Positions 5,400 to 53,850 of a DNA stretch of 64,000 nucleotides are shown piece after piece. Position 1 is the first letter of the stretch. Every line of letters begins with the position of its first letter. The position numbers and the translations under genes are program-made. Below the pieces are notes generated by a model. The model had not been told where the DNA came from, ran no database searches, and saw only the letters and a list, made by a program, of their open reading frames with translations. The stretch comes from Cyanidioschyzon merolae (taxonomy: Eukaryota), in NCBI GenBank assembly GCA_000091205.1, contig AP006489.2; one strand, 5' to 3'.

Positions 5400-6160
5400 C
5401 ACTGCGCTTTCGATTCGCATCTGATCTATGCACAGCCTCATTGTCGCCTCTTGCAACAATGGCACCCGACTGCAGTCAGGCGTTCCCATGTGCGATCACA
5501 CTTCCTCCGGACGCCGCTCTATCGCCCGTGAAAACTAGCTTCATCGCTCGGACTAAACCGTTGGTGGATATCGAGGTTCCCCTCGATGCCGTCCATCATT
5601 TTCGCGTCCAGTGCCGTACCCTACGACCATGGGCTTCTTTGCGATCTTCTCGTCGAATACTCTGTCGGCTCCAGAAACATGAGCACGCTGTTTTATTGGA
5701 TGGAGGATTTTGGAACGCGACGTTTTACATGATGAAAGGAGTACTCGAAGGGATGTACAGACTCAAGAACACGTCGAGAAATTTCGATCCGTCCATGCTC
5801 CCGTCTTGCAAATGGTGATGAACTTTCCACTGGACATGATCTCCAAGATCACTGAAGTCCGAGTTCAAAAAACTTTTTGAATTAAACAATAGAGAAGGGA
5901 ACTCTGGGAGCGTACCCAGTGAAAGCTACTACGTTCCTGTCGAACGCCATTACGTAGCTGGCCACAAAGACACGTGTGTTGAGATTTCGAGGGGAGGCGG
6001 TAATTTTTCGTTACAATTTCAGAGCGCTTTCGGCAGGAGCCCATGAAGAAGTCGCCAAGGGAATACGTCCAGTTATTTTCCTCGTCAATCAAATAGCACG
6101 AATTGCAGTGCGCACGAGTTGAAATGATTCTGAAAGATCGAAAACTTGAAGAACTCTTGA
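5400..6160 (+). repeat. Dispersed repeat family, copy A (core ~5626-6160)
   Basis: Nucleotide similarity to 29380-30190, 46930-47870 and 52900-53850. Shared blocks include 'GGGCTTCTT(C)TG...', 'GGAT(T)TTGGAACGCGA...ATGATGAAAGG', 'TTCCTCGTCAATC...CGAATTGCA' and 'GAAAGATCGAAAACTTGAAGAA'. ORFs across the copies carry the recurring peptide motif L(W/E)NA..SMMK. Confidence 0.6.
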
Positions 6161-6480
6161 GATGAGCGCAACCCATTTATGCAAACAAGAAGAATGGAGG
6201 CTCTCGTATATAAATTCGATAATGGTATCGGTTATTCTAAGAAGCCGTATTCGAGGAAGTCGAGAATCATCTTGATTCCGGCGATCTGGCGAATTCCTGC
6301 GGCAAAGGCTGGAAGGAAGCACCCCACAAAGACTCCCGAGAATCTTTGACTGCATATATATCCATACGCTCTTAGGGCTGCACATCAGACGCTGATGTCG
6401 TCCAACTAAAAAATTGGAAAAATCTACGGGCCGGGACACACAGAGCGATTCAGTGTTCCACTGAAATCTGAGACGGAGCT

Positions 6481-8955
6481 ATGAACGCCAGTTCGGATTT
6501 CCGCTCGGGATGCTATGACAAATCACCACTGGCGACGCGTCTCGGCCCGAAACGTGATTACGCGCTTTGCTTCGCGATTCACAATATTTCCGCTCTACCA
6601 ATGGAGAACGGTGTCTTTTTTGTGTCGCCGAACTTCCTTGGTAAATATCCAGGGGGATTCCGAAAATGCTGTAGCAGCTCTGCAAAACGTAAGGAATGCA
6701 CTTCTTCAATAAAGCTAAAGCGCCGGGTTTGGTGTTTATCGTTGCAGTTTGATGAGAGCAGTCCAACTGTTGGTCCGCTACAGGACAGGCGCTTCGATGC
6801 GCGTACAGCAAGCCGCACGCTTAAGGTAACGCGAAAAATAGCAGAGCTTGTGCGTGAACAGAGACGTACAGTGGAGTCTGCATCGAATCCTGAGCTTGTG
6901 GAAGATGCAGCCGACACAGAGATCAATCTTTCTCTGCTGTTTGAAAGCGATCGTGAGAGGGGTTCAGATCCTGCGCGCGTGCTGGAAGCATTCCGAATGC
7001 TTTCCAAGCAGCCTAGCCGGCTTGCGAGACTGAATGGTTCGCAGCCGGCTTCTGTAGATAGCACTTTTCCGAAGTTCGACCAGCGCACTGAAGTGCCTGC
7101 AGCACAGCACGGACCAACTGTCGATGCCAGAGGTTATTTGTTGCTGCAACGCAGCCTTCCAGTTGAATATGAGTCGCCGATGGGTTTTCAGAAAAAGCGT
7201 GGACTCTCTACAAGGCCGCTTGAATGGACGCCGCAGCCTTTCCTTCGCTCGCTCGACATTTGGGACTTTGCTGCTCAGTTTTGGTTGACAACACAGCTTG
7301 CGAAATGGCGTTGGACCTACGGAATAGTTGGATCCCGAGAGGAACTCGAGGCGAAGCGAAAAGAGCGACGCCGAGCGATCGCCGCCTGGGTGCGCGAGGA
7401 GCTGATTCGGTTAGGACCGACTTTTATTAAGGCAGGCCAGTTATTCAGTGCACGCTCAGATCTCTTCCCAGCGGAGGTGGTTGATGAGCTCTCAAAATTG
7501 CAGGATAGCGTTCCACCATTCCCGGCGGAAGTCGCGAAGAAAATTATCCTTACAGAGCTCGGGATCAAGTCTGGAAACATTGGAGAAATATTCTCCTACT
7601 TCGAGGACGAGCCAATAGCAGCAGCTTCCCTGGGTCAGGTTCATCTTGCTCGCTTGCGGTCGACTGGAGAATACGTCGTTGTGAAAGTTCAGCGACGCCA
7701 GCTGCGAGAACTGTTTGATATTGATCTGCGCTTGCTCAAGTCACTCGCGGATTTTGCGCAACGATCGTCTCAGCTCGGAGGTCCTACGAGAGATTGGCCG
7801 GGAATATTTGAAGAGTGCAAAAATGTATTGTTACGCGAAATCGACTACATTGAAGAAGGTCGCTCTGCGGACCGTTTCAGAGAAAATTTCAGAAATATTG
7901 AATGGGTACGTGTTCCAAAAGTTTTTTGGGAGTACACAACGCAGCGCGTGCTCGTGCAGCAGTATCTGCCCGGAATCAAAATTAGCAATGTAGCGGAGTT
8001 CCAGGCCATGGGCTATAACCTCCCTCGAATCGCAAAAAGGGTCGCAGAAGCATATCTCTTTCAAATTCTCGGTAGCGGATTCTTCCATGCAGATCCTCAT
8101 CCCGGAAATTTGGCCGTTGCGCCCGGCGAGGTGCTGATTTACTATGATTTCGGCATGATGGGTACATTGCCCTCGAATATCAAGGAGCGCATTGTCATGC
8201 TCCTGGCGGCGGTTGTGGATAAGGATGCGGACACTGTGATGAAGCTTCTGATCGAACTGGGGGCGCTTGTTCCGCCCCGAGATCCGACACCAGTTCGAAG
8301 AACTATCCAGTTCTTTTTGAACTCCCTCGGGAGTCGCCCTGTGCGCAGCCAGACAGTGCAAGCGATTGGTGAGGATCTGTATTCACTCGCATACGACCGG
8401 CCGTTTCGTTTGCCGGCAACTTTCACTTTCGTGCTGCGAGCTTTCACAACGCTCGAGGGCCTTTGCAAAGCACTTGATCCGGGCTTTGCTTTTGGACAAA
8501 TCGCCCAGCCATATGGTTTCGCTCTTCTGCGACGTCGCAGTCAGGCTCAGAGCCTCCGGCGCTGGCTGAATGACAAGACAATTCGCAACATTGTGAGCCT
8601 CCCAAATCGACTGGAGCAACTGGAAAATTCGATGCAAAGAATTCAGAATGGAGATATCGTCGTTCGCTCGCGAAACACAGAACTGGAGAGATTATTAAGA
8701 AGGCAGAGTGCCGCGATGGAGACGAACCGGACGACAATCATTGCAGCAGCTCTGGCAGTCGGAGCTGCCACAGTGGATACCAACATAGCTCTGCCATATC
8801 TTGGAGATATCAACGTATCCTTGATTCTCGGCGCGCTAGCTGCCCTCTTTGCAGTGAACGCAACGCGATCCTACATAAGTCGGGTTCGACAGGAAGAGCG
8901 CTGGGATCGCTTCTTGAGCGGTGATTCTGGGTCGGATAACAATGCGCCCCAGTAA
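6481..8955 (+). CDS. ABC1/ADCK (UbiB-family) atypical protein kinase with C-terminal membrane anchor
   Basis: Diagnostic ABC1 motifs are present: 'LGPTFIKAGQLFSARSDLFP', 'AAASLGQVHLARL', 'HADPHPGNLAV', 'IYYDFGMMG'. The 824-aa continuous ORF starts at an ATG. The C-terminus has a hydrophobic segment (IIAAALAVGAATV...LILGALAALFAV). Confidence 0.85.
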   Translation: MNASSDFRSGCYDKSPLATRLGPKRDYALCFAIHNISALPMENGVFFVSPNFLGKYPGGFRKCCSSSAKRKECTSSIKLKRRVWCLSLQFDESSPTVGPLQDRRFDARTASRTLKVTRKIAELVREQRRTVESASNPELVEDAADTEINLSLLFESDRERGSDPARVLEAFRMLSKQPSRLARLNGSQPASVDSTFPKFDQRTEVPAAQHGPTVDARGYLLLQRSLPVEYESPMGFQKKRGLSTRPLEWTPQPFLRSLDIWDFAAQFWLTTQLAKWRWTYGIVGSREELEAKRKERRRAIAAWVREELIRLGPTFIKAGQLFSARSDLFPAEVVDELSKLQDSVPPFPAEVAKKIILTELGIKSGNIGEIFSYFEDEPIAAASLGQVHLARLRSTGEYVVVKVQRRQLRELFDIDLRLLKSLADFAQRSSQLGGPTRDWPGIFEECKNVLLREIDYIEEGRSADRFRENFRNIEWVRVPKVFWEYTTQRVLVQQYLPGIKISNVAEFQAMGYNLPRIAKRVAEAYLFQILGSGFFHADPHPGNLAVAPGEVLIYYDFGMMGTLPSNIKERIVMLLAAVVDKDADTVMKLLIELGALVPPRDPTPVRRTIQFFLNSLGSRPVRSQTVQAIGEDLYSLAYDRPFRLPATFTFVLRAFTTLEGLCKALDPGFAFGQIAQPYGFALLRRRSQAQSLRRWLNDKTIRNIVSLPNRLEQLENSMQRIQNGDIVVRSRNTELERLLRRQSAAMETNRTTIIAAALAVGAATVDTNIALPYLGDINVSLILGALAALFAVNATRSYISRVRQEERWDRFLSGDSGSDNNAPQ

Positions 8956-9020
8956 AATAATGGAATAGTATCTTTACTATGAAAAGGTACATCCGCGAGC
9001 GGGATGCATCGAGCTAGGAA

Positions 9021-10553: not shown

Positions 10554-11718
10554 ATATTTACATTTATGTATATTTCTTAGACTTCAGGACTGTCTGGCGA
10601 GCACCGTGGGGCGAAAACGCTGCACGCCCATGGGATAAATTGATATAGACGTGCAAACGCCTCCCGGCTGCCTTCGACCAGCACTCTGCAATGAGCTCCA
10701 GATTCTCCGTGTAAACCTCGAACCTGAGAGGCTGCTCTACAAAGTTAGATCGCGTCAGCTCTCATGATCTCGTCTTCAGCACTGGGCATATCCTAAAAAA
10801 GCTGGCAGCGTTAAAGTATCGGTTCAGGAACTGAAAGCGTTTGTTGCTTCTGGTGGTACGCACCAATGCATCGATTCCTCGAACTCGAGCGCTCTGTCCG
10901 AGTACAATCTCCTCTAGGCAGACTTTCGTTCTTCTTCCTCGTCTTCGTCACTTGCTCTTATTTGCTCGACGATCACCGAGAAGAGGCTTTTTTCCGTTTT
11001 TTCTATGGCACTCGGCTATAACCGCCGTCCAGGTTCCGCGATTTATAGGTCCATATCTTTCCCTTGGATTTTTCATTTCTTCAAATGAAAGAACTTCGGA
11101 GACGTCTGCTATGCACCGCGACAAAACAATTGATTAAACGCATCTCGGGGTGAAACACAATTGACGTAAAAGACTGCAAAATGCGTGAAAAACTGCCAGA
11201 GGATGCGAAATTGACGCTCGAACGCTGCCATCAGCGTCCTTTGAGAGGTGACTACAGAATTGGAAGGAAAGGGAAAACCGTCGTATTGAACGCGGGCGAT
11301 ACGCTAGCAGAAAAGGAAAGCATCAGAAAAATCCCGGAGAGGCTGATGTAGACTACAGAGGGAAGAGACCCAAACTTTAGTACTTGCCTAAGATATGTTG
11401 TTGGACCTGTTCTACATTATACTCACGTGGATGTAGAAAAGCCACGGAAATAGTGTTTATCTGTCGTGAGCAAGTGCGCCTCGGCCGTTTTGCTGTGCAG
11501 CGCAATGCTCGCAAGCTAAGAAGGTCGGGAGCACGCATTTACACGGTTGTACAAGAGTTATGTCGCATCCAGGGGCCTGAGCAGTGCACTACAACGGGCG
11601 AGTGGGCAACTTTTTCTGATGCCACAGCGCCGTAAGGTTCATAGAGCGCTTTGGTGCAAGACCTCTGCAGATGAAGCTCACAGCCGCGCATACGAGAGAT
11701 TTTCTTCAGTGCTGATCA

Positions 11719-16478: not shown

Positions 16479-16978
16479 ATGAAGCGCGCAGGACGTCATT
16501 TTCCTTCAGTCGATGAGACTTCCTTCGTACGAAACGGTCGATGCCTATATGGGTATTCGTGGAGAGGGAGCTCGATTTACGTACGATCGAGCTCGAAGAG
16601 AAAGAACTCAGCATCTGCTCAAGCTGCAGTGGACTATTCGGCGGCCTCCTTTTTGCTCGTAGGTATTGGCATGTAAGTCGAGGATCCTGGAGGCTCGTCA
16701 TCACCGGCTGAAGAAATAAAACGAAAAAATCCTCTTCTTGCCCACCGTCGCGCGAAGAAGTGCAAGCGGAGAAGAAGAAGAGTGGATATAGGCCGGAAAA
16801 TGCTTTTGCCTGTCAAGACGATGACGAGACTGTTTTGTTAGAGAGGGTGCGAGTTCTGAGAATCTTTGCACAGATGAGTTCATCCAGCGGCAATAAATGC
16901 AAGGTGTTCATGAACCGAGACCTAAACGCCGCCATCAATATCAGACAATGTGTGCTGCTGAAGACGAGACTCGAGTAG
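16479..16978 (+). pseudogene. Degenerate TnpB/Fanzor-like (RuvC-like RNA-guided nuclease family) gene remnant, frameshifted
   Basis: A RuvC-II plus zinc-finger signature 'SVDETSFVRNGRC' sits at 16506-16544. A textbook RuvC-III signature 'CKVFMNRDLNAAINIRQ' sits at 16898-16945 in a different frame, and I verified its codons directly. The two motifs are about 130 codons apart, as in TnpB/Fanzor. No intact ORF spans both. Confidence 0.5.
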
Positions 16979-19487
16979 CTGGTGGAATCTAACTTTGTGC
17001 TCAAGCCTTTCAGGCTCGAAGAATTTAGGGAAAAACTAATGCTGGCAGAAAGCGTCCTGTCAAAAAAGCTGGGAAGCGCCAGTGGGTGAGTGTATATTCA
17101 CCCTACATGATCAGGGACATTTTCTGCATCACAAACAACGTATGTTGAAGCGGTCGGTATACTCAGAGCCATGATTTCTGGAACACCTTAACACACATGC
17201 TATGTTAGTTTTGCTTGTTTTCTCACGGCCGGTCGGCTCCAGGAATGTAGTCTTTCCATTAGAGAAAACCTGCGGAGAGAATTCGTGCTGTCTCTGCTAA
17301 CTTGGGCAAAATGGCTTACATCTACAAGTGAGTCACTCTACAGCCTCCAGACGAATTAACCACCCATATAGCAGTCCTTATCCTAAACAACGCTCGCCCA
17401 AAACAGATTGCATGAAACTCCTTCTGCACGACTCTCTCATAATCATTCCACCCCATCCCATATGATCTCCTAGCAATGCTACAAAAGCAGCCAAAAATGT
17501 GGAAGGTTTCAGTATCGTTGGTTCTATCGGAGTTGAACAGATTCGGAATGATAAACGGAAAGACGCGCTCAAAACGGAGAGCTTCGAGCTCCGAATAACA
17601 AGCACTACCGACTTTGTATTTAAACGCAAACAACAACTATAGTTGCCACGAATGTTCGTCTCCCTCGAAGAGAATTCATTCGCGAGAATAGTAATACTTC
17701 TATTTGGGTGCTCAGAGAGGGCAAACCTCTGTCTTTAACGCATCGACACGGGAGCATGACGAATATATCAACCAAAGCCGCAATGTGGTCGTGTGGTCAC
17801 CTACAGATCGCCAAACGGACATGATCGTTCAGTCCCTAGCCCTTCCTCGAGACACATTTCATGGCTTCTCTTTCGCACATTCTTGTCGTCTGCTCCGAGC
17901 CAATGTCGCTTTTCCTCATGTAACAGCTGTAAAGGAGTACCCAGCTCAGATCGACTTTGAGCTGCGTTTTATACGGACCTATTCTCCCCGGTCCGATCCA
18001 GACCATGCCGTCTTCTCTACTCTTAAATGCCATATCCATGCTCAAAAATGACAAGCGGACTCATTTGCATCCATGGAACCGATATATGAAGGACGCCGTC
18101 ATGCATCGTATGGCACCTCTTCGGTGGAAAGCTCGCTCAGCATCTGCTGCATTTACGCTCCGCGCCAGTCCTTCTTCGTCGGGGTTCTGGACGCAAAGCG
18201 TTTACGTGTCCACATTCGCCTGAAAATTTTTAATCAAAACTTCGATCGACAAATGATGCTCTAGACATAAGAGACAACACAACGAAGTAGTAGGATAAGG
18301 GCTTTGGATACATGCATCTTAGGATACTTAACACGTCGCCGCGCCAGGTCTGCGATCGGAATATCTACAGCGATGGTATCAAAACGTGGCAAACCACTCT
18401 CACATACCGAGACCGTATCCGCGTCGGTCTCGAGCTGTTCATGAAGCGCACCGTGTAGCCGTTCTAGCCTCACCTAGCAGGCCGAGACACGGAGGGATCA
18501 GCGGAAGGGATCCTTGTGTGTCGATAAAGGCAATCGACGTGCTGGTCCTGGCAGTGGAGGTCGAGATGGCAAGGTGTCGGAAGAGGATGTTGCACAGAGT
18601 GCGACAGTCGCATCCGATCGTCCGAGCTCACCGTGTTGTTCTCCACCACAGAAATATGCACGTCGTATTCAAAGAGTTTTCAGCACCTTGATGCACCCCC
18701 CTTTGCAACTTCCGGCCCGACGTTTTCCCCGAACAGAGCCTTCCGGAGCAGATCAGGTTCTCTTTCCGAATGCGAGCTATATCGCGTATCCAAGCTTCTA
18801 TTAGATAAGCCTCTCGTGTGTCAAATCAAGACTCGCCTTATCAGCGTAGACGCTTCCGCCCCGAGCGACATTCTCAGCGAAGTGTGGCTGGTTTCTGCGG
18901 GCAAGTGTGGAGAATACGAACACTTTCGCTAAGAGAATAGAGGGTTCGCTCATGTTTTCTGGTTTCCAGACGGGAATGGAGACAATACTAACACAAACAA
19001 TGTATACTTTCGGAATATCAAACTGCACGTACTTCGTGGGACCTATGTCTGAAACAGTCTGCGAGAATCTTTCTGACCCGTTCAGGATAATTGATGAGAA
19101 GAGTGGACAGTGTGTTTGCATCTCAGGCATAAGAGCACGAACGGCCTCACAGTACCTCTGAAGGAAGATAGCGAAGCCAAAGTTCTGAACGGATAGCAGA
19201 TAAAAGTTTCTGGCTGTTCCTGGGCTCGGGATCATAGAGTCTGTGGTGTTTCGGAGCGGAGGAGCCATACAACCAAAAGTAATGACAGCGTCAGGACCCA
19301 GCTCGACGCTCAAGAACACTGTATTGACCTGTGGAAGCCTTGCACGATTTATTCAGAGAGTAAACGATCGCTCAAGTTCCTAATGCGTACGATCCTTGAC
19401 AGAAATAAATAAAACAATGTTGGGGTCAACGTCCGCTTCCATTGCACCGACGGAGGAAGCGTCCATATACCCATTAGTTCAGTCAGT

Positions 19488-19850
19488 TTGAAAACGGAAA
19501 GAACCGAGAAGTCGCTTCATCTGGTGGTAGGCGATGGCGCTGAATATGCTCTGGTGCGCAAAGCCTGCATTCTGGCTCCTGAAACTAGAGCATTCAGTAA
19601 GTGCAGGAACCAAGTCTGTGCGATTCCCGTCGATTATAGAAGGATGACAAACACGCCTTACGAGCGAGATTGCATGCCGAAACTGGAAGGCGAGTTCAAC
19701 ATGAAACAGAGGCGTTTGTATACGATGGTCTACAGGAGGCTGATCGAACATCAGACTGCGAGGAAATCGAGAATGAGGAACCTGCTTTTTGATGATTCCA
19801 GCAGCAACAATGCGTACCAGCACATTCTGCAGCGAGCATTGATCGCCTAG
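19488..19850 (+). pseudogene. Diverged paralog of the 242-aa RuvC-like protein encoded in the 22.3-24.5 kb palindrome
   Basis: Protein alignment: 'LVVGDGAEYALVRKACILAPETRAFSKCRNQVCAIPVDYRRMTNTPYERDC' against 'LVVANGAGRWASKKGTTPAPSTRTYKECARRFATIPVDEFRTSYTLHELGC', and 'RMRNLLFDDSSSNNAYQHI' against 'RMKFVNRDFNAPINKSR'. The catalytic E is replaced (VDY), so it is probably inactive. Confidence 0.4.
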
Positions 19851-22332: not shown

Positions 22333-23300
22333 AAACGCCTTTCAAAAGAAAAATGCTGTCGCCGGCCGTGTACAGGAGTGGCGAATGGTGCGCCCTAGAC
22401 TAGACATCTCCAACCGACGTGCAGACGCCTCCCAGTGCTTTTGGAGCGGCCACCTACTACTGCTTCCAATTGTTTCTCATATAGTTCGACTTTGAGAGGT
22501 TCTCTTACAAAGTTCTCTCTTGTCCATTCTGGAGGACTTTTCTCTAGTACCGCACATCTACTTTTATTGATAGGGGCGTTAAAGTCTCGATTCACAAACT
22601 TCATTCGTTTCTTGCCATCACTGGTTGTACTTACTAATGGAAGTAGTCCACGAACTTTCGCCCTCCTTTCCATTTGCTCTTCCGTTAGCGGTCCGTACTT
22701 TTTTATATCCTCAGGGCTCTGCTGACACTTTTCCATCTCGACCCTCTGAAGTGCACACCCCAGTTCATGGAGTGTATAGGACGTTCGGAACTCATCTACA
22801 GGTATCGTAGCGAAACGCCTTGCGCACTCCTTGTACGTTCTTGTTGACGGAGCTGGCGTAGTCCCTTTTTTGGACGCCCAGCGCCCTGCTCCGTTTGCTA
22901 CAACGAGCCTCTCACTCTCGTCCTTCTTGAGGGCGCTCAACTCATTGAAAAAGTTCGCGAACGCCCGCTGCTTTTCACAATACAAATTCATTCGCAAACG
23001 AGCCCACCGGGGCTTTGTGCATTCTTTCCAAAGGCTCTCGTCATGAGCAGCGTGAATTTTCATAACCTCTCGAAAAGCTTCAATGTCGGCTCCCCGGCTC
23101 GTCACATGGCTGATCGCTTCCAAATTCCCTTAACACCTGAATTCGATGTCTCACTTTTCTTCCTTGCATTCATTATACGGGATTCTCGATGGTATCTCGC
23201 TCATGAGAGCATCAACAGACTTATGTCTTTCTGACGTAAGTTACCATCAGTACCATCTTCCGCACGCTTGGGTGCTGCGACAGTTATGATATTTGTGTTC
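22333..23300 (-). repeat. Left arm of inverted repeat
   Basis: Reverse complement of 23546-24513. The outer boundary is defined where the flanks diverge: left rc '...GAAAGGCGTTTTGTCCGTG' against right '...GAAAGGCGTTTGTTTTCGG'. Confidence 0.7.
22395..23123 (-). CDS. Compact (242-aa) RuvC-like TnpB/Fanzor-related protein, copy 1
   Basis: It carries 'ATIPVDEFRTSYTLHELGC' (RuvC-II E plus TS plus Cys) and 'KKRMKFVNRDFNAPINKSRC' (RuvC-III RDxNAxxN). A possible degenerate RuvC-I 'LVVANGAGRW' lies only ~35 aa upstream of the E. An in-frame stop lies 2 codons upstream of the listed TTG start in the (+) copy, so the frame is at most ~245 aa. That is much shorter than known TnpB (~400 aa) or Fanzor. 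Confidence 0.55.
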   Translation of the reverse strand: MEAISHVTSRGADIEAFREVMKIHAAHDESLWKECTKPRWARLRMNLYCEKQRAFANFFNELSALKKDESERLVVANGAGRWASKKGTTPAPSTRTYKECARRFATIPVDEFRTSYTLHELGCALQRVEMEKCQQSPEDIKKYGPLTEEQMERRAKVRGLLPLVSTTSDGKKRMKFVNRDFNAPINKSRCAVLEKSPPEWTRENFVREPLKVELYEKQLEAVVGGRSKSTGRRLHVGWRCLV

Positions 23301-23321
23301 CAAGGGTCCACACCAACGACA

Positions 23322-23460
23322 AAGTCCTTACCCTGCACCTCCTGCATCGCAGGATCCGCACTCTTCTCATCTACATGTTTCGCCTAGCCGTCTACAAGGT
23401 TGTACTTCTCCAACTCCTGCGTCGCAGGATCCGCATCCTTCTCATCTACATCCTTCGCCA
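23322..23460. repeat. Tandem ~65-bp direct repeat (2 units) at the palindrome centre
   Basis: Unit 1 is 'CCTGCACCTCCTGCATCGCAGGATCCGCACTCTTCTCATCTACATGTTTCGCC'. Unit 2 is 'CAACTCCTGCGTCGCAGGATCCGCATCCTTCTCATCTACATCCTTCGCC'. Each contains a GCAGGATCCGC core with a BamHI-site mini-palindrome. Confidence 0.6.
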
Positions 23461-23545
23461 CGGGCGAAGCCGAGGACGGACCAGGAGGCGGGCCCGACAG
23501 CGCTGGAGGTGCAGAAGAACGATTTCTCGTTGGCGTGGACTCTGG

Positions 23546-41855: not shown

Positions 41856-44492
41856 CTAGAAACGTTCCTGGATAAAGAGGATCGGTTTCTTCGTACCGAG
41901 GCGCTCGGGTTGCCTCTGGACTTTGTGCATGGCCCGTCGAACACTCGCACCAAGGGCTGGATTCCCACAGAAAAAGATGCCTCTTTGTACGTCGTTGGAG
42001 AAGCCAGACACGCGATTGAACTGTTTCACCTGGATAATGTTCCCAAAAAGTCTTTCAAACTCGTACGGATCGCGCAGGTCCAACAAATCCTCGATGAACG
42101 TTTCAAAGCGGGGCCGTCCCTGGTGAAACTGCAGTATCGACTTGGTTGATTGGCCGGCTTCCAGGATGCTCGCAGGAATCTCGCCTCTCGTCAGAAATAT
42201 GTGTACCCGAACGCGCGGAATCAGGTCAGGAGTCCAGGTTTGCGCCAAGTCGAACAGGCCTTGAATACCCCACAGGTCCGCGTATTCGCGCACCACCCAG
42301 ACAAAAGTTAGACTGAACACGTTCGCATACAGACGCTGCTCCTGCTGCTCCTGCTGCTCCTGCTGCTCCTGCTGCTCCTGCTGCTCCTGCTGCTCCTGCT
42401 GCTCCTGCTGCTCCTGCTGCTCCTGCTGCTCCTGCTGCTCCTGCTGCTCCTGCTGCTCCTGCTGCTCCTGCTGCTCTACATGGGAGACCTTATCGTCGGA
42501 TTGGACGCACCGCTGCTGCGCCACAGCTGTCCCAAGACCGTTCCCCCTCCGCGAGAGCAAGGCGCTCGCTTTCCGTCCCAGATGACGCACGCGCCTCAGC
42601 TGGATACGCCACGGCCGCGGCAGATAGAAAATTCTGAGGGTCAGCGCAAACATGATACTTTTGATACAGAAGAGGACGAGGGCGATGATGCGCATCGCAT
42701 TCCCTGCGCCGTCCATATAATGCGACGAGTGTTGTTCGATGCCGAAGAGCGTTGCACCCACGACCAGGTCTGCAACGAGGAGTCCGCAAACACTCAGTGA
42801 TACAAAGCCGCGCGGGGTGCCGACGTAACGCCAGCGAGGCGGATCCAATGTCACCAGCATATCCGACGCAATCGTGAACGAGAAGAGAAAAAGAAGCACT
42901 GCCGAGCTGGTGAAATCCGCAACTAAGGCTACATTGGCATCGAATGCATTTGCGATGACATAAATCGTCAAGCTAATGTACAGCATCCAGAGCAGACTGA
43001 ACAGCCAGAGGCTACTCAATACAAAAGCCCGTAGTCGATCAATTCGCGTTTCCGTTTGGAATATTCCAACGCGCTCTTTCATGTACATCGAAAGGATGCC
43101 AGATTTCCGTATTCGATCCAGCAACTGTGCCGATGTTTCCTGTTTGCTCAGTGTATCGAGAGTCCCGTGCTGCGTTCCGGCCCTGATTCCTCGAATATCA
43201 TCATCGGACGCATCCGCGATGCCGGCCAATTTGGCGGGAGCACGAGCGCTACATATTTCCCGGAGTATGGAGACCATCGGGGTTGCACCAACGCCGCTTC
43301 CGATCAGCAACTGGTAGGGAAAGTGCAGATGGGACTGCGCCGGTGCTCCATACGGGCCTGCCAAGAGCACCCGGTACGCCTCGATTGTCGTCATACATAT
43401 CCGTTCAGGGGCCAAATCGAGGCCGTCCGCCGTTGTTGTCGCTGCTTCTGCCACTGCTGCTTCTGCAAGGCTGTGCAGCCTGCGAGTCCATTTGCCCACT
43501 GCCGCAATGTAGAACGTGATGCGATCCGAGTCGCATGACGGTGCGCTTGCGGCTGTGAACGGATGCCAAGCATCAGCGGGCATACCACACCCTTTGCGCG
43601 TGTCGATGATCATGATCTTGAAATACTGGCCCGGTAGGTAGACCGCGTTCCGTCGTTCAACGGAGAGCTTCACGATATTGGAGTTTGCCTGAGCCAGACT
43701 GAGCACCAGGATGCGCCGAGGAGTTACGGTCGCCCGGGAGAGCTGATACAAGCGGTCGATGATATAGAGGAATACCGGGCCTGCGAAGAAGTACACCGTC
43801 CAGGGCCGGCCGCCTCGCAAGCCGTGAAATACCAGACAGATGTATACCAGGACCGCAATCGGACGGTGCGTCCACCAGAACAGGCGGAACCATTTCCGGC
43901 GTACAGTTTCAACTCCAAAACCGAGCAAAGGAACCAGCAAAACCATGAGCACCACACCTGTGACAAAAAGCATGGTCGCTGGCAGTGCCGCTGGTCCCGT
44001 GAACAAACCGCCACGAAATACGAACACGCTCGCAGCGTAGTTGACGATCTGGGCGATGCCGTGAATCCAGCCGGTTGCGGCAAGTGACGTCCCTACGATG
44101 GTGTGCATGTCGGGTATCCATCGCTCCACACATAGCAGGTCGTAGAGAGGTGTGCGGTACAGAACCGTCGCTAGAGTGCGGTTTATCGTGAGCGGGAGGA
44201 CAAGCGAACAGAATGTGCACGCAAATCCCATGCCCCGTGCGATGGATCCCGCATACCGCAGGATACCACTGGGGCGCAAGTCGACGATAACGTAGCGTAC
44301 CCCGTAAGCAAAGAACCACGACATGGCACAGAAGAACAGGAGAACAATCGAGTACCAAAGCCCGTTTTCAACGAGGTGGATATTCCATATTTGCGTACGT
44401 TCCGTCAGGCTGGGATCGAGATTCGACTCGTTCTGTTTTGCTTTGTTCATCAGTATCGTACGAAAAACGCAGATGGAATAACCACAAGTCAA
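41856..44492 (-). CDS. Ferric-reductase/NADPH-oxidase (NOX/FRE) family protein with large TM-rich insertion and (QQE)n tract in the NADPH-binding domain
   Basis: A ferric-reductase TM domain with His-containing helices. FAD motif 'HPFTAASAP'. NAD motif 'LLIGSGVGATPMVSIL'. The C-terminus has 'FFCGNPALG'. An insertion of about 330 aa with 4 hydrophobic helices and 16x QQE lies between the NAD motifs. Confidence 0.8.
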   Translation of the reverse strand: MTCGYSICVFRTILMNKAKQNESNLDPSLTERTQIWNIHLVENGLWYSIVLLFFCAMSWFFAYGVRYVIVDLRPSGILRYAGSIARGMGFACTFCSLVLPLTINRTLATVLYRTPLYDLLCVERWIPDMHTIVGTSLAATGWIHGIAQIVNYAASVFVFRGGLFTGPAALPATMLFVTGVVLMVLLVPLLGFGVETVRRKWFRLFWWTHRPIAVLVYICLVFHGLRGGRPWTVYFFAGPVFLYIIDRLYQLSRATVTPRRILVLSLAQANSNIVKLSVERRNAVYLPGQYFKIMIIDTRKGCGMPADAWHPFTAASAPSCDSDRITFYIAAVGKWTRRLHSLAEAAVAEAATTTADGLDLAPERICMTTIEAYRVLLAGPYGAPAQSHLHFPYQLLIGSGVGATPMVSILREICSARAPAKLAGIADASDDDIRGIRAGTQHGTLDTLSKQETSAQLLDRIRKSGILSMYMKERVGIFQTETRIDRLRAFVLSSLWLFSLLWMLYISLTIYVIANAFDANVALVADFTSSAVLLFLFSFTIASDMLVTLDPPRWRYVGTPRGFVSLSVCGLLVADLVVGATLFGIEQHSSHYMDGAGNAMRIIALVLFCIKSIMFALTLRIFYLPRPWRIQLRRVRHLGRKASALLSRRGNGLGTAVAQQRCVQSDDKVSHVEQQEQQEQQEQQEQQEQQEQQEQQEQQEQQEQQEQQEQQEQQEQQEQRLYANVFSLTFVWVVREYADLWGIQGLFDLAQTWTPDLIPRVRVHIFLTRGEIPASILEAGQSTKSILQFHQGRPRFETFIEDLLDLRDPYEFERLFGNIIQVKQFNRVSGFSNDVQRGIFFCGNPALGASVRRAMHKVQRQPERLGTKKPILFIQERF
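42336..42477. repeat. (CTGCTCCTG)n 9-bp microsatellite, ~16 units, in-frame within the NOX gene (encodes QQE repeats)
   Basis: Direct reading of the sequence: 'gctgctcctgctgctcctg...'. Confidence 0.9.
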
Positions 44493-46727: not shown

Positions 46728-46929
46728 GAGTCTTCTACGGCTTTCTAGACCTCATTTCGTGTAGCAGGTTCCACGGCATTGCCTACCTCTGGATTTCGGA
46801 AATCATTGTACAAAAAGACACTTTACCCCCATGTCAGAATATCGTAGAAAGGGTCAACAGCGCTAAGTCGGCGAGCAATGCATAGTTTCGGTTTCTTCTC
46901 TCTATCATCAATACTAGCCATTGCGGGGT

Positions 46930-47870
46930 TTCTCAGCGACAGCTTCCTTTTTTTCCCTCTTGTCTCTGGCTTTAACCAGGTAAGGCTTTCCTTTTCCGTC
47001 AGCTCTATTCTGAGCAGTTGAACGACATGGATGGCATCGTTCAAGTTCAGGTTTCGCGACTTCCAACCGCTGTCGACACGTTTCATGCACAGGCGAAAGT
47101 TGTGATCTACGCTTCGCTTGTCGGTGCCATATTCCTTGGACGCAACTTCGTTGCGCCTCCGTCGGTGATGACATTTGACGTTGGTGAGGTGTTCCTAGAT
47201 GTGCACCACACCTTCTCCTTCGAGGGCAACCCTGTGGTGCATGGACGTTTGCTTCATCACTCGGCACATGCCCTTGACGAGTACAGGAGGCGCCCCGAGT
47301 TCCGTGCTCCTTTTCCGCTCACGGTGCAGAACAATAAGATTTTGGGCTTCTTCTGAGCAATCACCTCAGCGAGTTCGTCGGATGCAGCAAGCGTACGCAT
47401 ACGCCGTTTCATTTGATACAGGATTTGTGGAATGCCATGCTGTCCATGATGAAACAACTACATATAGGATCATCCAGACTAGAGAACAATTCGAGAACAT
47501 TCGATCCGTCTGTTCTCCACTCGTACCGAGCGGTGAAGCACGCTTCATCAAGAGGAATCGCTCGGAAGCGTCAAGTACGAGTCCAAGACCCTTTTCCACG
47601 CAAACAGAAGCGAAGGAAGCCTCTGGGGGCATATACTCGAGTGAGAACATGCTGCACTGGAATGCCGTTTCATTGATGGGCATATAGAGAGGAGTACTCG
47701 TCGTTCGAACGGAATCGATTATATGACGTGACGAGTTCAATGAACTCTCGGCATGAATTTGTGAACAATTCGCCTGATGACGACGTCGAGTTTTTCCCTT
47801 GCTAACCCGGCGATGATGTTGCCCGCACCTACGTGTTGCCGCGAAGCAGAAACATAGAGAACCTAAAGAA
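46930..47870 (+). repeat. Dispersed repeat family, copy C (long form)
   Basis: It shares the ~540-bp core with A, B and D. It also shares ~400 bp of extra upstream similarity with D only ('TCAGCTCTATTCTGAGCAGTTGAACGACATGGATGGCA' against 'TCAGCTTCGTTCTGAACAGTCGAAGGATGTCAATGGCA'). Confidence 0.6.
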
Positions 47871-48646
47871 TGCGGGAACTGGCATGCCAGCCTGTAGCAA
47901 GAAAGAGACGTCGCGACCTCTACATGTGAATAAGCTACTGGTATCGATCAATTTATGAAACCATGTTTGATAGCGGTGCGAATTATCATGATTCTGATGA
48001 TGGAACGAATGCCAGCGGAAAATTGCCGAGGGAGCCTCTCAGGGAAGGCGATTGGAAACCCAGAAGCTACATAGAAACCGCAAGCCCTCATCGATGCACT
48101 TTGATTGCACGGGCTGTTCATATTCAAACAGCTGCTGAAAATTTGGAAAGAAAGGAGCACGGCGAGCAGCTCACTTGTCCATTTTCATATGACATAGGTG
48201 TATGATCAAAACCCACCACTGAAAGACGAGTGATTCCGTTTCAGGAACCTCGCTCATGCGACCGACGCCAGCAAGCTCGCTCGCCCGAAGGCCAGTCTCG
48301 ATCCGGATGACAGGCGTCTCGAGGCGAACCCAAATTTGGCGACGCCCGCTCGATCCACCAGGGCCGACGTGCACGCATGCTCGCCGCTGCTGTACACGTG
48401 TCCCGCACGAGGTGACGCGAGCCAGGGATCCAATCGCCACGCGCATGCCGCGTAGCACCCGTGGATGCGAGGCCCTGCGCTGCTCCGGTCCCGAGCGGGC
48501 AAAAGATCATGGTATGGCTGCTGCTTGGATACGCGTTGAGCTGTAGCAATATCGTTCCGCTTCTTTCGCTCAAATTTTTCAGGTCTCAACGAAAAAGTCT
48601 TCAGTAGAGCTCCGAAGATAAAACGCCAAATTGCGGAAGCAGTCGT

Positions 48647-49258: not shown

Positions 49259-51219
49259 AACAATGGATTTCGAATGGAAGGATATCAACCTTAGTTCAAA
49301 GGGATAAGCATGCGATGCAGCGTTATCCGGCGCGTAAATCCTGAACGCGTTTCGTCCACAGTGCCAATGACTTCCGAAAGGATTCCCCGTGGTGGCCTGT
49401 TCGATGTGTAACATAAATGAACTGTGGAAGATGCCCCGGCACCGAGGCGCGCCAAATCACCAAACACCAACAAAACCGTCAACACCATGCCGTTCCTTGC
49501 GGGCAGCGGTCAACGAGGCACCACAACTATGGTGTCATAGCGGGAGCTACGTCGCGTTCAACGGTGCACGCACGAAAAAATATTCGGGCAAAAATGGATA
49601 GAGCTGTGGTGGAATGCCTGTTCAGGTACCGGCTCCATCTCGCACGGAAGGTACAACCAGAAAAGAAACTCTGGCAAGGCTCCCATGACATAAAGACGTA
49701 CAGGGGAATTGCTACTGCGCCCATGGTATCACTTGTAGCGCCGCCAGATTCCAGAGCGCGAGGCACGAGGGTTACCAGCATAGCCTGACTGTAGTCTCCG
49801 TGGCATCTATCGTGAGCGCGCCACAGCTCGTAAACCTTTAAACCCTGATACGATGCATGGGACCAAACACAAGTGCGCTACGGCGTCATTGTATCAAAGA
49901 GTTCAGACACTCATCAAAGTTCGCCTGTGCAAATGCAGATCACATGCTCGGATGTCGAACCGCGTGCTCGACCGTCTGAAGAGCACTGCTTTCTTCCACG
50001 AAATGCGCTGAAGCATTTAAACCTTTGCGAGTAGCTTCCGCGGCCCGATGCGCCCCAGGATCAAGACGATGACGCACTACGCTCCGGGCCGCTGCAACCT
50101 ACGTATATAACTAGGGCAGGCGATGCGGCACACGGCAATGTCAACATCCCTTGAGCCGACGCCCTCTGTGGTACGGCAACGCCGTTGTGTCTCCGTGCAG
50201 CGACCGCACCGGTGCTATAGGCGCTATTGCTGTCGCTTTCGGCAGGCTCGGCACTCGATAGGACGTATGTAGCGACCAGAATATCCGAGACGAGGTATAG
50301 GTAATGTATCTTGGAGGTAGGGCGTTTGATGGATACCTCACCTCGCACTGAAAAAGACACAAAAAAGTAAGAAAAGAAAAATGCGCATAATCGGAGAACG
50401 CTGGCCTAAGTAACCGTTTTGTCAATGAAAACGTCAACATCCGCCTCCCTGCCGGCATCTATCGATCATGTCTGGTACAGCATCGTTGGCACCAGTTCTC
50501 CATGGAAATAAATCAAAGAATGATGATCCGGGAGCAAAGGCATCTGGGTCTTTCCTCAACGGATGCCGGGGCGGTAACGTCACCAAGCTCCAGCGGCAGA
50601 TACCGCGAGTGCATGCCGCAGCCGCATTAGAATGCTGTGCGAGCTGCGCAAAGTCACGAGGAGCCCTGGCAATCGACGCGCATGCTACCAACGCCGCACC
50701 TAGAGTTGCGGTGCAGTCAAGGCTCGGGAAACTTTGATTCGGCACTCTTGTTGCGCGGTATGACATTGGTGCTGTCGTGCCGGATGCATCACGACATCGA
50801 TGCGGGAATGCGTCATGCATCTGCAAGTTCGACGCTCGCGTCAAGCACAGCGCCAGGCTTTTGATAGTGAGTCGAGGCGCTTCTGGAGCGAACAATGGTT
50901 TTTTTTCTGTGAATAAATGAGCTGCTAGTTGCGTATATCGATGTGAATCGGAGCGCGCCATTCGCGGAACGCATGGTCAGCGTCTATGCTCCCAGTTCAC
51001 GCAGATGCTGATCCATAGTTATACATATATCTACATATATGAATCGTTTCGTGGATGAATACGGTTTGAGGCGGCATGCGCTGCAGCATCGCGTCGCACG
51101 CCTCTGTCCTGGCACCAACACTGGCGCAACTCTGTTCGCCATACCGTTGTGCTGTACTGACAGCTCCGCCGCGGGCGTCTACGAGCGTGACTGAGTCGCA
51201 CCGCTGCCGTGTATAACGC

Positions 51220-52578
51220 TTGCATCGAGACATGGTCAACACGGCGACCACAGAGTCGGCTCGACCCGAGTCGAGAGCGATTACTGCGGCGGAGCTCCCC
51301 GCGAAGCTTGAACAACTGCGCGCTGAAGCAGAGACCGGTGGCGACACGAAGCCCGTCATAGAGGCCCTGTACGCGTTGGAAAAGAAGTTCCGTTTGGCCG
51401 ATGATGCGAACGCTACAGCGCTGGTAGCTACTGAGATCGTTCGTCTTGCCTGGCAGCAAGGCCGAGTGCCCGCACTCGTAGAGCACCTGCGACTGCTCAG
51501 CCGTCGTCGGGCGCAGCTCAAGCAGGTTGTTGCGACGATCGTGCGCGAGGGAATGCAGTACCTCGATCGAATAAAAGATGTTGCGGAGAAACGTGAGCTG
51601 TTGGAAGTGCTGCGCGATATATCCATGGGGAAACTGTTCCTGGAACTGGAGCGTGCGCGTCTCACCAGAATGCTAGCCGAGCTCATGGAGCAAGCCGGAG
51701 ATATTAGTGGTGCCGGGCGTGTGCTGAACGAACTCCAGATTGAAACATTCGGAAGCATGGAGCGTCAGGAAAAATGGACTTTTATGCTGGAGCAGATCAG
51801 GCTCTGCCTTGATCTCGAGGACACTGTTCGCGCGCAGATTATTGCGAACAAGTTCACAGCCCGAACACTGGTCGACGAGGAGTTCAGGAAGAGCCCCATC
51901 AAGACTAGGTATTATATGCTGATGATTCGACTGTATACAATGCAGCAGCGTTTGAAGCTCGCGGACGACACCCGTTTCATTGATATTGCCAGGGCATACC
52001 TTGCGCTTGGGGAGGAATTCCTGGGCAACGCGGCGCTGTATACGATCCTTGCTCCCCGGAACCATGAGCAACACGATCTGCTGCATCGATTGTCCCAACG
52101 TCAGCCATTGCTCGAGAACAAATCACCGCTCCGTATATATGGCGAACTCCTGTCACTGTTCCGGATCGAAGAGCTTATCCGCTGGCCAATCTTCGTTCAA
52201 TCATACCGCAGTGCGCTGGAGGAGAAGCACCCGGACTTGAACTGGTTGTACTTGCAACGCCGTGTTCACGAGCACAATCTGCGAGTGATCGCCAAATATT
52301 ACCGACGGATTCATTTGTCTCGTTTGGCTGCGCTTATGGAAGTCGATGAGGATACCGTGGAAGATCTGCTCTGCGATGAGATAACGAGTGGACGGATATG
52401 GGGCCGCATCGATCGTATCGATGGTATCGTGAGTTTTCAAAGGGAACGAAAACCAGAGGAGATTGTCTCTGAATGGGCGCAAAACGTCGACGAGGTGCTC
52501 GCTTCTGTGGACCGTCTCGATGAGTTGGTGAACAAGGAACGTCAGCAACGGGCGGTGCCTACGAGCGGTACGAGCTGA
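51220..52578 (+). CDS. PSMD12: 26S proteasome regulatory subunit RPN5 (PSMD12), PCI domain
   Basis: 'LLSRRRAQLKQVVATIV', 'ERARLTRMLAELMEQAGDISGAGRVLNELQIETFGSMERQEKWTFMLEQIRLCL', 'HNLRVIAKYYRRIHLSRLAALMEVDEDTVEDLL' and 'IDGIVSFQRERKPEEIVSEWAQNVDEVL' are collinear with human PSMD12. Confidence 0.9.
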   Translation: MHRDMVNTATTESARPESRAITAAELPAKLEQLRAEAETGGDTKPVIEALYALEKKFRLADDANATALVATEIVRLAWQQGRVPALVEHLRLLSRRRAQLKQVVATIVREGMQYLDRIKDVAEKRELLEVLRDISMGKLFLELERARLTRMLAELMEQAGDISGAGRVLNELQIETFGSMERQEKWTFMLEQIRLCLDLEDTVRAQIIANKFTARTLVDEEFRKSPIKTRYYMLMIRLYTMQQRLKLADDTRFIDIARAYLALGEEFLGNAALYTILAPRNHEQHDLLHRLSQRQPLLENKSPLRIYGELLSLFRIEELIRWPIFVQSYRSALEEKHPDLNWLYLQRRVHEHNLRVIAKYYRRIHLSRLAALMEVDEDTVEDLLCDEITSGRIWGRIDRIDGIVSFQRERKPEEIVSEWAQNVDEVLASVDRLDELVNKERQQRAVPTSGTS

Positions 52579-52899
52579 AACGCACTGCATCGTTTCATGC
52601 GTGTTGAAAACGCTCTGAGGAGCATTGGCATCAGGCATCTGGCTTACGTATCCCAGAATACATGCATCGTCTACGAAATCGACCTGGCGTCATGGAGTGT
52701 CCATCGAACTCGCGGCAGTCCAGTGTGCTGGATCCAGGAAGAAATGCATAGCACCAGGTCGAGAAGCTGTTGTTGTTGTTGTTGACATCAATCTGAGTCC
52801 ATGTCAGAGTGAAATGTACGAGGTCCTCTATTTCGGTCGTACGCAATAATGTTGGGGTCTATTCACGCTGTCATGAACACCAGACACTGTAGTATTTTT

Positions 52900-53850
52900 C
52901 TGCGGCTGCTTCGCGTATCTCGCTCCTTTATTCGGCTTTAAAAACGCTGGTCTCGCCTGTCCTTTCAGCTTCGTTCTGAACAGTCGAAGGATGTCAATGG
53001 CAGGATTACAATCCGGATTTTACAGTTTGCGGCTGCTGTTGACGCATTTCATTAACAGACAAAAATTGCTATTGACGCTTCGCTTGTTATTGTCATCCTC
53101 TTCGTATCCACCCTCGGTACGCCCTTCGATGCATTGACACACGACTATGATGCGTTTTTTTCGTATGTGTGTACGGAACCTCTCCTCCTCGAACGCTACG
53201 CTGTGAAACGTGGACGCTTCGTGTATCGCTCGAAACATGCGCTTGGCGGATACAGAAGGCCCTCATCGATACCATCCGTCGTTTTTGCACCTGGTGCTGT
53301 GTCCTACGATCATAGGCTTCTTCTGAGAAATGCCCTCGGCGAGTACGCTGTCCGCCGCTCACGCAAGCACGCGCTGTTCCATTCGACAGAGGATCTGTGG
53401 AACGCGAGATTGTCCATGAAAGGAAAATTACCCTATGGAAAATCCACACTGGAGATCAAACCGAGAAATATCGATTCGTCTACGCGACCCACTTGCAAAA
53501 AAAGTACCGCGTTATCCACTGGTAGCGATTACTGCGATGGCTCAAGTCCGAGTCCATGGCCCTTTACGATGCGGACGGGCGACAAAGAGCCCTCTGGGAG
53601 CATATCCCATCATATGGATCATGCTCACGTCGAATGCATTCTCGATGATACTCCCATAGAGGCGAGGATTTGGCATTCGAACGGAATCCATTCTTTAAAG
53701 TTGCGTATTCAGCAATCGCTCGGCATGGGCTCGTAAAGAAGTCGTCGAGGGGCGACGTCGAGATTCTTTCCTCGTCAATCCACTGGCGCGAATTGCAACG
53801 TGTATGATTAGTTAATGAAAAGAAAAATCGAGTTATTGAAGTATGCGTGA
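52900..53850 (+). repeat. Dispersed repeat family, copy D (long form)
   Basis: See copies A-C. 'ATCATAGGCTTCTTCTGAGAAATGCCCTCGGCGAGTACG...GGATCTGTGGAACGCGAGATTGTCCATGAAAGG...TTCCTCGTCAATCCACTGGCGCGAATTGCAACG'. Confidence 0.6.

Follow-up and report, generated by a model that had tools for sequence, protein, structure and literature searches.

The dispersed repeats in the window, the whole 64,000-nucleotide stretch of Cyanidioschyzon merolae chromosome 7 analyzed here, are very probably the decayed remains of a mariner-type, non-autonomous DNA transposon of class II (cut-and-paste) that carries a Fanzor1 remnant. Rpn5, which is encoded in the window, is identical to BAM79611 of C. merolae 10D, a protein of the chromosome 7 record (PMC1955436). 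The repeat unit measures about 1.37 kb, its consensus ends in terminal inverted repeats (TIRs), and two protein remnants, one of a DDE transposase and one of a TnpB-like nuclease, are fused on its minus strand. Because fragments of both the transposase and the Fanzor gene have been kept, the repeats are regarded as relics of an ordinary mobile element, with no regulatory module involved.

Copies in the window

Four full-length copies, all on the minus strand, were delimited with an nhmmer profile of 1369 positions: copy A at 5134-6476 (1343 bp, profile positions 1-1368), copy B at 29095-30457 (1363 bp, positions 2-1369), copy C at 46829-48194 (1366 bp, positions 4-1369) and copy D at 52799-54179 (1381 bp, positions 1-1369). 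According to these boundaries, the four copies are collinear across the entire unit, have their ends in common and have kept their lengths well (1343-1381 bp), which replaces the arrangement proposed by the sequence-only reading, a core of ~540 bp in all copies with a further ~400 bp upstream in C and D alone. The existence of four copies in the same orientation was confirmed, since BLASTN self-matches among them reached E=1e-31 over 846-923 bp, and their similarity is therefore far past chance. The identity of 65-75% given by the same reading holds within the core, but overall pairwise identity is 55-61%. The copies are confined to intergenic DNA, as had been noted; in three cases the site is a gap between tandem plus-strand genes, to which the copy is antisense.

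A fifth, partial copy is present at 11178-11430 on the plus strand, in the orientation opposite to that of A-D. It comprises the 3'-terminal 250 bp, with the C-terminus of the Fanzor remnant and the 3' TIR (profile positions 1118-1369, E=9e-26; tblastn with the metagenome protein P0013, residues 177-205, E=0.002), and it adjoins a relic of the published element CMe-1A.

Termini and target site

The consensus begins and ends precisely with a TIR of ~25 bp, in which 22/25 positions match; none of 5000 shuffles reached 22, and the maximum was 19. In single copies, the best 22-nt end-to-end match was 15/22 in B, 13/22 in C and 17/22 in D, and in copy A the best match was offset from the ends. The TIRs of copy D, at ~52797-52820 and 54158-54181, are the best preserved (16/18 to 17/22 positions). 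Directly outside the TIRs, the flanks of the copies are unrelated. In the flank consensus, and also in several single copies, each end is adjoined by the dinucleotide TA; it is intact at the expected position in 3/5 of the 5' flanks and 2/8 of the 3' flanks, and it may itself be part of the TIR. These observations are suggestive of a TA target-site duplication. Essentially, the structure is that of an ordinary TIR-bearing non-autonomous transposon, an outcome of the kind (an ordinary MITE or SINE) which the sequence-only reading had named as contrary to its own proposal of a functional module.

Transposase and Fanzor remnants

The consensus was built from eight independent copies, A-D and four on C. 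merolae-like metagenome contigs. Its frame 0 (window minus strand) matched the Pfam domain DDE_3 (PF13358) over profile positions 3-117 of 146 with 38.7 bits (E=1e-9) and, in a second scoring, with 40.9 bits, the curated cut-off being 28.6 bits. What remains of the IS630/Tc1-mariner transposase is its N-terminal two thirds, in which the first (AIDET) and the second (FIMDNIAFH) catalytic aspartate are kept. The element is non-autonomous, because the DDE domain is truncated ahead of the third catalytic residue, which is missing. Upstream of DDE_3, HTH_33 (E=0.003), HTH_Tnp_Tc3_2 (E=0.022) and HTH_32 (E=0.026) were matched in the expected order, all under the Pfam cut-offs, and the consensus transposase is collinear with residues 83-224 of the 308-residue Mariner-like transposase of PUl-1 (E=4e-6). 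The DDE_3 assignment applies to the consensus only; single copies gave no match in the Pfam search, since they are too decayed. The transposase-derived parts lie at ~5713-6088 in copy A, ~29667-30056 in B, ~47406-47806 in C and ~53373-53778 in D, and the consensus transposase maps onto copy A.

Fused to this remnant is frame 2 of the minus strand, in which a nuclease of the Fanzor1/TnpB-like kind is represented by its C-terminal third; the frame reads MEQRALACAAD..IVGYGTG..WEHLTTVKCHCC..RNRDFNAAINIL and runs to a stop. The frame contains the motifs GYGTG, WEHLTT.KCHCC and RNRDFNAAINIL, as well as the series WEHLTTVKCHCC...FRLCMK...RNRDFNAAINIL, and the C-terminal RuvC-II glutamate, the CxxC zinc ribbon and the RuvC-III motif RDxNAAxNI are all present. 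Its score against PF07282 (Cas12f1-like TNB), 22.8-24.1 bits (E=4e-5 to 1e-4), is slightly below the cut-off of 26.3. Frame 2 is 44-51% identical to the metagenome proteins P0012-P0014; P0012 has GIDPG and exceeds the PF07282 cut-off with 34.9 bits. In tblastn searches, each of the copies A-D was matched on the minus strand by P0012 or P0013 (E=1e-8 to 5e-13). The Fanzor-derived parts are ~5565-5741 in copy A (P0013, E=1e-8), 29279-29697 in B (P0012 residues 196-332, E=8e-11), 46943-47424 in C (residues 200-358, E=4e-11) and 52861-53406 in D (residues 196-374, E=5e-13). Intact relatives of the family, 536-551 aa in length, were observed on metagenome contigs. The N-terminal WED/REC region and the RuvC-I aspartate (GxDxG) are absent from the consensus. 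Homology to P0012, P0015 and P0016 ends near 'QRALA..AAD'; the sequence upstream of this point is the transposase frame. The copies hold a fragment of a Fanzor gene and no Fanzor gene as such.

Coding state of the copies

The copies contain 4-28 stop codons per frame (13-16 in each frame of copy A) together with frameshifts. The recurring plus-strand peptide motif, from which a coding derivation had been suspected, is the reverse complement of the sequence coding for FIMDNIAFHKS, the second catalytic-Asp motif of the transposase on the minus strand. The suspicion was right about the coding origin and wrong about the strand. Similarity among the copies is equal across all six frames and 3-base periodicity is absent, and the motif therefore reflects similarity at the DNA level.

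Copies elsewhere and relationships among copies

On C. merolae-like contigs, four more independent loci (L037, L039, L045 and L025) show DNA-level matches to the same unit. In BLASTN, L037 and L039 share the ends of the unit (consensus positions 21-23 to 1388-1393) and L045 and L025 gave shorter matches; in the profile search, L037, L045 and L025 were aligned end to end and L039 from profile position 89. The identity of all copy pairs, within the window and on other contigs, is 54-61%. Copies within the window are no more similar to one another than to copies on other contigs, and the phylogeny is star-like. Relative to neighboring genes, the copies elsewhere are sense, antisense or placed between divergent genes.

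The locus of copy A also occurs in environmental strains (L028-L031), and copy C was found in every environmental strain contig spanning its site. Among strains, copies C and D show 9-14 segregating sites per kb, compared with ~7 in genes and ~17 in other intergenic DNA. Since these values lie between those of the two reference classes, they are compatible with weak constraint on copies C and D.

Alternative explanations

From the co-orientation, the sequence-only reading suggested a conserved functional module, which is considered here as a noncoding element (an lncRNA or UTR, an origin, or a boundary element) held in one orientation by selection. Such a module is very unlikely, although the co-orientation of the four full copies, three of them antisense between tandem plus-strand genes, the well-kept lengths (here taken as 1344-1381 bp), a polymorphism somewhat below that of other intergenic DNA and the reported transcription of C. 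merolae repeats (Nozaki et al., 2007, PMC1955436) would agree with it. Co-orientation carries no meaning here: four of four copies in one orientation would arise by chance with p=0.125, the fifth fragment is inverted, and orientation elsewhere is mixed. A structured RNA was not supported either: no Rfam family was matched, and RNAalifold returned no consensus pairs for the 3' 300 nt of nine copies, the part to which the structure test was applied. Neutral decay would also erase the structure of a guide (omega/f) RNA, whose expected place is the 3' end of the ORF and of the transposon. The most conserved blocks coincide with the ancestral protein motifs GYGTG and DN..H and not with RNA helices, and the sharp ends of the unit are accounted for by the TIRs and the transposase remnants without any function.

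An equally small probability is assigned to membership in a known C. merolae family, either the 253-copy WSV486-like element (Nozaki et al., 2007) or CMe-1A / TE-N2_CMe (Bao and Jurka, 2013). The genome is the same, both kinds of element have Fanzor1-type remnants, copies of CMe-1A are present in the window, and the repeats are ~76-80% identical to their consensus, as was described for CMe-1A (PMC3627910). However, the CMe-1A consensus (3169 bp) gave no BLASTN match to A-D at E<=1, and the CMe-1 protein gave none in TBLASTN, whereas the same queries clearly matched 22336-24510, 10648-11175, 16675-17074 and 50145-50321. Likewise, the Fanzor1 protein SWv-1 of WSSV, presumed in this comparison to be the protein called WSV486, matched the CMe-1A arms (E=1e-8) but neither A-D nor the consensus. 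According to its description CMe-1A has no TIRs, and it lacks a DDE_3 remnant; the present element has both.

Duplication of a local intergenic segment without transposition, or alternatively a functioning gene family that evolves fast on one strand or the other, is hardly credible: four copies in 49 kb share one orientation and are crossed by ORFs of 90-200 aa, but sharp common ends with TIRs, unrelated flanks and a star-like phylogeny in which distances among window copies match those to copies on other contigs argue against duplication (and against the segmental propagation considered by the sequence-only reading), while stops and frameshifts in all frames, the lack of codon periodicity and a plus-strand ORF (P0009) with no homologues beyond itself argue against a gene.

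Proposed origin of the repeats

Under the favored reading, a decayed mariner-type transposon with a Fanzor1 remnant, the ancestor would have been a Tc1/mariner-IS630-type element in which a DDE transposase gene was followed by a gene for Fanzor1, a TnpB-like member of an RNA-guided nuclease family. An internal deletion would have joined the transposase, cut just past the second catalytic aspartate, to the last third of Fanzor (RuvC-II, zinc ribbon and RuvC-III), with both ~25-bp TIRs retained. The resulting 1.37-kb derivative, presumably mobilizable solely in trans, may have been amplified in a single old burst and inserted into intergenic DNA, probably at TA, after which its copies would have decayed neutrally to ~76% identity with the ancestor. 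We infer the parent element, since a full-length autonomous element with both genes was not recovered.

Five copies or fragments per 64-kb window exceed the expectation for random insertion; both this clustering and the co-orientation may be due to chance or to local hopping. At least seven further relics, from two other Fanzor families, also lie in the window. Transposon relics make up ~15% of it (summed mapped lengths), and for C. merolae transposons have been cited as ~0.7% only, plus one peculiar repeat class. It is conceivable, yet improbable, that the cluster of at least five copies and at least seven relics of other Fanzor families marks a tolerated or silenced 'transposon graveyard' domain of chromosome 7, such as an H3K27me3 island, where antisense relics are kept for transcripts that repress Fanzor/mariner elements or insulate neighboring genes, and, separately, that the intact relatives of 536-551 aa are compact RNA-guided nucleases.

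Comparison with known systems

A mariner-Fanzor1 chimeric transposon of C. merolae was not found in the literature searched. For annotation, the repeats add a mariner-type family that is bounded by TIRs, carries a Fanzor1 remnant and is separate from CMe-1A as published, and they provide a red-algal example of Fanzor1 carried in Tc1/mariner elements. No new mechanism is revealed, but the 'simplest' eukaryotic genome would once have housed such a chimeric transposon, and reconstruction of a consensus revealed that seemingly noncoding repeats had come from coding sequence.

Mariner-Fanzor1 elements have been described as PUl-1, PUl-2 and PUl-4 in Pythium ultimum and as PGv-1 in Phaeocystis globosa virus (PMC3627910). 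The present family resembles them in its TIRs (24-33 bp there, ~25 bp here), in the TA adjoining the ends and in the order of the genes, with a Mariner-like DDE transposase upstream of Fanzor1 on one strand; the transposase is collinear with that of PUl-1 at 22% identity. It differs from them in being a 1.37-kb internal-deletion derivative, in its red-algal host and in having dead copies only. The transposase has lost its C-terminus with the third catalytic residue, Fanzor has lost its N-terminal two thirds with RuvC-I, and a full-length parent was not recovered.

CMe-1A / TE-N2_CMe, which probably corresponds to the 253-copy 'WSV486-like' element (Nozaki et al., 2007), is likewise an old (~80% to consensus), intergenic element of C. 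merolae with a Fanzor1-derived ORF and many truncated copies. In contrast to the present element, it is ~3.2 kb long and was reported without a TIR or a transposase; the two have no detectable DNA similarity, and their Fanzor parts are remote relatives, CMe-1 being 25% identical to P0012. Eight 'class II elements' of C. merolae, closest to bacterial transposases, were also reported, though neither the article nor its supplements list coordinates for them (Nozaki et al., 2007, PMC1955436); as a conjecture, the IS630-like DDE_3 remnant would fit this wording.

In a P-MITE survey, no MITEs were reported in C. merolae (PMC3964958). With the non-autonomous, long MITE-like elements that arise from Tc1/mariner and IS630 elements by internal deletion, the family shares the retention of both termini, the deleted interior, the amplification of a single defective master and the star-like phylogeny. 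Its size of 1.37 kb is far above that of classical MITEs, and it carries an extra Fanzor fragment beside the transposase sequence.

Copies and Boundaries

The four same-strand repeats proposed by the sequence-only reading were recovered at its positions by a repeat scan, MAFFT alignment and sensitive self-BLASTN, the last giving a best E-value of 1e-31 among copies A-D and matches 846-923 bp long. What that reading had divided into a 540-bp core and a further 400 bp in C and D is actually one unit common to all four: in an alignment of A-D with 1.8-kb flanks, identity was 50-70% across one common span of ~1.37 kb in 6/6 pairs, and it dropped sharply at both ends to background (about 30%) outside that span. 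Exact boundaries were taken from a profile built later, which places copy A at 5134-6476, B at 29095-30457, C at 46829-48194 and D at 52799-54179, and which also matches a fifth, partial copy on the opposite strand (11178-11430).

The proposed intergenic location was confirmed, each of A-D lying between ORFs with clear Pfam identities (flanking pairs, in order from A to D, ANTH/ABC1, LRR/unknown, GNAT/iron transport and Rpn5/unknown). At 51232-52575 the window encodes an Rpn5 protein identical to BAM79611 of C. merolae 10D, and several contigs from JGI, ENA and Logan (metagenomes or read assemblies) carry DNA near-identical to the window (99.2-99.9%).

Coding Origin of the Repeat

A live gene is ruled out, because similarity among the copies was equal in every one of six TBLASTN frames and their conservation has no 3-base periodicity. 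The indels between copies are short and their lengths are not multiples of three, and each present copy carries 4-28 stop codons per frame. Pfam matched neither the plus-strand ORFs of the earlier reading nor the single decayed copies, either over whole frames or over stitched segments; a protein-database search with P0009, the one plus-strand (antisense) ORF through a copy that the protein collection includes, returned only itself and no relatives. RNA searches were likewise negative: Rfam at the gathering threshold and a tRNA scan were both empty, and RNAalifold found no pairs and no shared structure at the 3' ends, over the 300 nt next to the Fanzor remnant, the expected place of a guide RNA.

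Since the coding test on the copies gave no signal, their coding origin was masked until a consensus was built. The four-copy majority consensus contains, on the minus strand, KKPMIVGYGTG, IWEHLTTVECHCC and RNRDFNAAINILR, which together form the TnpB/Fanzor nuclease signature of RuvC-II, zinc ribbon and RuvC-III, and it matches the Cas12f1-like TNB domain (PF07282) with E=4e-5. Searches of a protein collection yielded P0012-P0014 with the consensus and P0015-P0033 with a profile. P0012, which carries GIDPG, WEYGTTQKCHRC and RNRDFNAAINIL, scores above the PF07282 cut-off; P0012 and P0013 match every window copy singly on the minus strand (E=1e-8 to 5e-13). Against PDB sequences the four-copy consensus gave chance hits only, and neither P0012 nor the consensus transposase had relatives there.

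The recurring plus-strand peptide L(W/E)NA.LSMMK...DPS, previously taken as a hint of derivation from a coding sequence, corresponds, in reverse complement, to ...GSVDGSKFLDLF...FIMDNIAFHKS; conservation of the transposase peaks in this stretch, which surrounds the second catalytic Asp. The hint of a coding origin was sound and the strand was wrong, the coding remnant being on the opposite one.

Apparently intact Fanzor1-like proteins related to the element are encoded on metagenome contigs: P0012 (locus L017), P0016 (locus L019) and P0015. These share the motifs GxDPG, GYGTG, WE..T(T/S)QKCHRC and RNRDFNAAINIL. P0015 and P0016 are 536-551 aa long, and the P0012 ORF, called at 376 aa, runs off a 1408-bp contig, whose closeness to the element in length was dismissed as coincidence for that reason. 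The neighbours of L019, encoding an RNA ligase and a Peptidase_S74 protein, are viral-looking.

Additional Copies and Architecture

Scanning metagenomes with peptide patterns drawn from the alignment gave 29 loci. Four further independent loci (L025-L027; L033/L034/L036/L037; L039; L044-L047) lie on contigs resembling C. merolae, up to 114 kb long, and are 66-70% identical to the four-copy consensus; L028-L031, a candidate ninth copy, was rejected as copy A itself and left out of the rebuilt consensus. In BLASTN against the four-copy consensus, L037 and L039 extend to the same ends and L045 and L025 match over a shorter length; with the later profile, L037, L045 and L025 are covered end to end and L039 from profile position 89. 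The eight copies are 1344-1381 bp long, with a 125-bp deletion in one, and form a star in which all pairs are 54-61% identical and the window copies do not group more closely with one another than with the rest (n=8). Because the scan patterns matched only one of the window's five copies (A), the true copy number is probably several-fold above the eight found.

The final consensus was built from the eight independent copies and read in gene orientation, the window minus strand. Frame 0 comprises ~270 open codons with one stop and matches the transposase catalytic domain DDE_3 at 38.7 bits (cut-off 28.6; E=1e-9; profile positions 3-117 of 146), the score from a nine-row version of the consensus being 40.9 bits. 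Weak HTH_32, HTH_33 and HTH_Tnp_Tc3_2 matches lie upstream of this domain, and the frame is collinear with residues 83-224 of 308 of the Mariner-like transposase of PUl-1, a Mariner-Fanzor1 element of Pythium ultimum (E=4e-6); the homology ends directly after the second catalytic Asp. Frame 2 is uninterrupted from MEQRALACAAD through IVGYGTG, WEHLTTVKCHCC and RNRDFNAAINIL to a stop codon, and scores 22.8 bits against PF07282, below the cut-off of 26.3. As homology to P0012, P0015 and P0016 starts only at the onset of Frame 2 (MEQRALACAAD), the N-terminal two thirds of the Fanzor protein, including RuvC-I, are missing; GSIDGSKF, considered as a RuvC-I-like motif, was rejected because it sits in the transposase frame (GSVDGSKFLDLF of DDE_3). 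The consensus ends exactly in a terminal 25-bp inverted repeat (TIR) with 22 matches (0/5000 shuffles reached 22; shuffle maximum 19), and TA adjoins both ends in the flank consensus, intact in some copies only.

From these frames and termini, the layout is a TIR, a transposase comprising a putative HTH and two thirds of the DDE domain, a deletion junction, the Fanzor1 C-terminus, ~80 bp and the second TIR. The element is accordingly placed among non-autonomous transposons, and because all eight copies have the same junction, a single defective master copy was probably amplified.

Relation to Published Repeats and Other Relics

Two kinds of repeat were reported in C. merolae by Nozaki et al. 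(2007; PMC1955436): a 3.2-kb interspersed element in 253 copies, whose truncated ORF is weakly similar to WSV486 of WSSV, and eight class II elements closest to bacterial transposases. Fanzor1 (TnpB-like) genes were later described in C. merolae and in WSSV, and the families CMe-1A (3169 bp, about 150 copies, ~80% identical to consensus, without TIRs) and TE-N2_CMe were defined (Bao and Jurka, 2013; PMC3627910). The CMe-1A consensus and its protein CMe-1, taken from the supplement of the latter paper, had no match to A-D and matched other window loci; the WSSV Fanzor1 protein SWv-1 had no match to A-D or their consensus and matched the CMe-1A arms. Because these queries miss A-D and detect CMe-1A loci, A-D are judged by sequence to be a separate family. 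The supplements of Nozaki et al. (2007) and of the H3K27me3 paper contain no coordinates for annotated repeats. A-D are an ordinary decayed transposon family, previously unclassified in the literature searched.

The CMe-1A loci include a near-perfect palindrome at 22333-24513 (991-nt arms, 99% complementary; 199-nt spacer), formed by two 5'-truncated copies, 22336-23384 (-) and 23483-24510 (+), which are 99% identical to each other and align to CMe-1A positions 2120-3169 with 86% identity in both cases. An open 242-aa ORF, 82% identical to CMe-1 residues 492-734, is retained in each arm. The arms differ so little that they suggest an old element duplicated in inverted orientation, or gene-converted, in the recent past. 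Two deletion derivatives, 10648-11175 (-) and 16675-17074 (+), join CMe-1A positions about 789-972 to about 2849-3089 and form an inverted pair ~6 kb apart, the first directly abutting the fifth mariner-Fanzor fragment at 11178-11430. A TE-N2-like piece of 177 bp at 50145-50321 (-) is 79% identical to CMe-1A positions 84-260, a region shared with TE-N2_CMe. Two segments at 324-879 (+) and 19475-19913 (+), 64.5% identical to each other, match the C-terminal part of CMe-1 weakly in translation (E=3e-4 and 1e-7) and appear to be remnants of a third Fanzor-like family.

Orientation, Clustering and Strain Variation

Strict co-orientation had been considered unusual; four of four full copies in one orientation gives p=0.125, and the partial copy is on the other strand. 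At the four loci outside the window, the element is sense to the upstream gene in two and between divergent genes in one. Clustering in the window looks real: 5/9 known copies or fragments of the element fall within it, CMe-1A relics and the third Fanzor-like family are likewise dense there, and transposon relics make up about 15% of it by summed mapped lengths. Local hopping or an insertion-tolerant region is the likely cause.

Among environmental strains (small numbers), segregating sites per kb were 9.2 in copy C and 14.0 in copy D, compared with about 2-10 in genes (17 in one ORF) and about 7-35 in other intergenic segments (0 in one short segment). The intergenic segment holding 50145-50321 has 25.5 sites per kb, among the highest densities in the window. 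Other variation includes a perfect 9-nt tandem repeat (GCTGCTCCT, ~16 units) at 42335-42476, within a ferric-reductase/NADPH-oxidase-like ORF (41856-44492, minus strand); in contigs from environmental strains the repeat is about 10 or 11 units (90 or 99 nt) shorter, which makes it a coding length polymorphism that preserves the frame. A 243-bp intergenic stretch at 60466-60710 is absent from one strain contig (L007), a presence/absence polymorphism. Three tandem 48-nt units (the others 90% and 69% identical to the first) lie at 61285-61428, upstream of a SAP30-like gene.

These results matter mainly for annotating a model genome that has the reputation of containing hardly any transposons. Compared with the Mariner/Tc1-type Fanzor1 transposons, the class described by Bao and Jurka, the element characterized here is predicted to be an internal-deletion derivative of that class.
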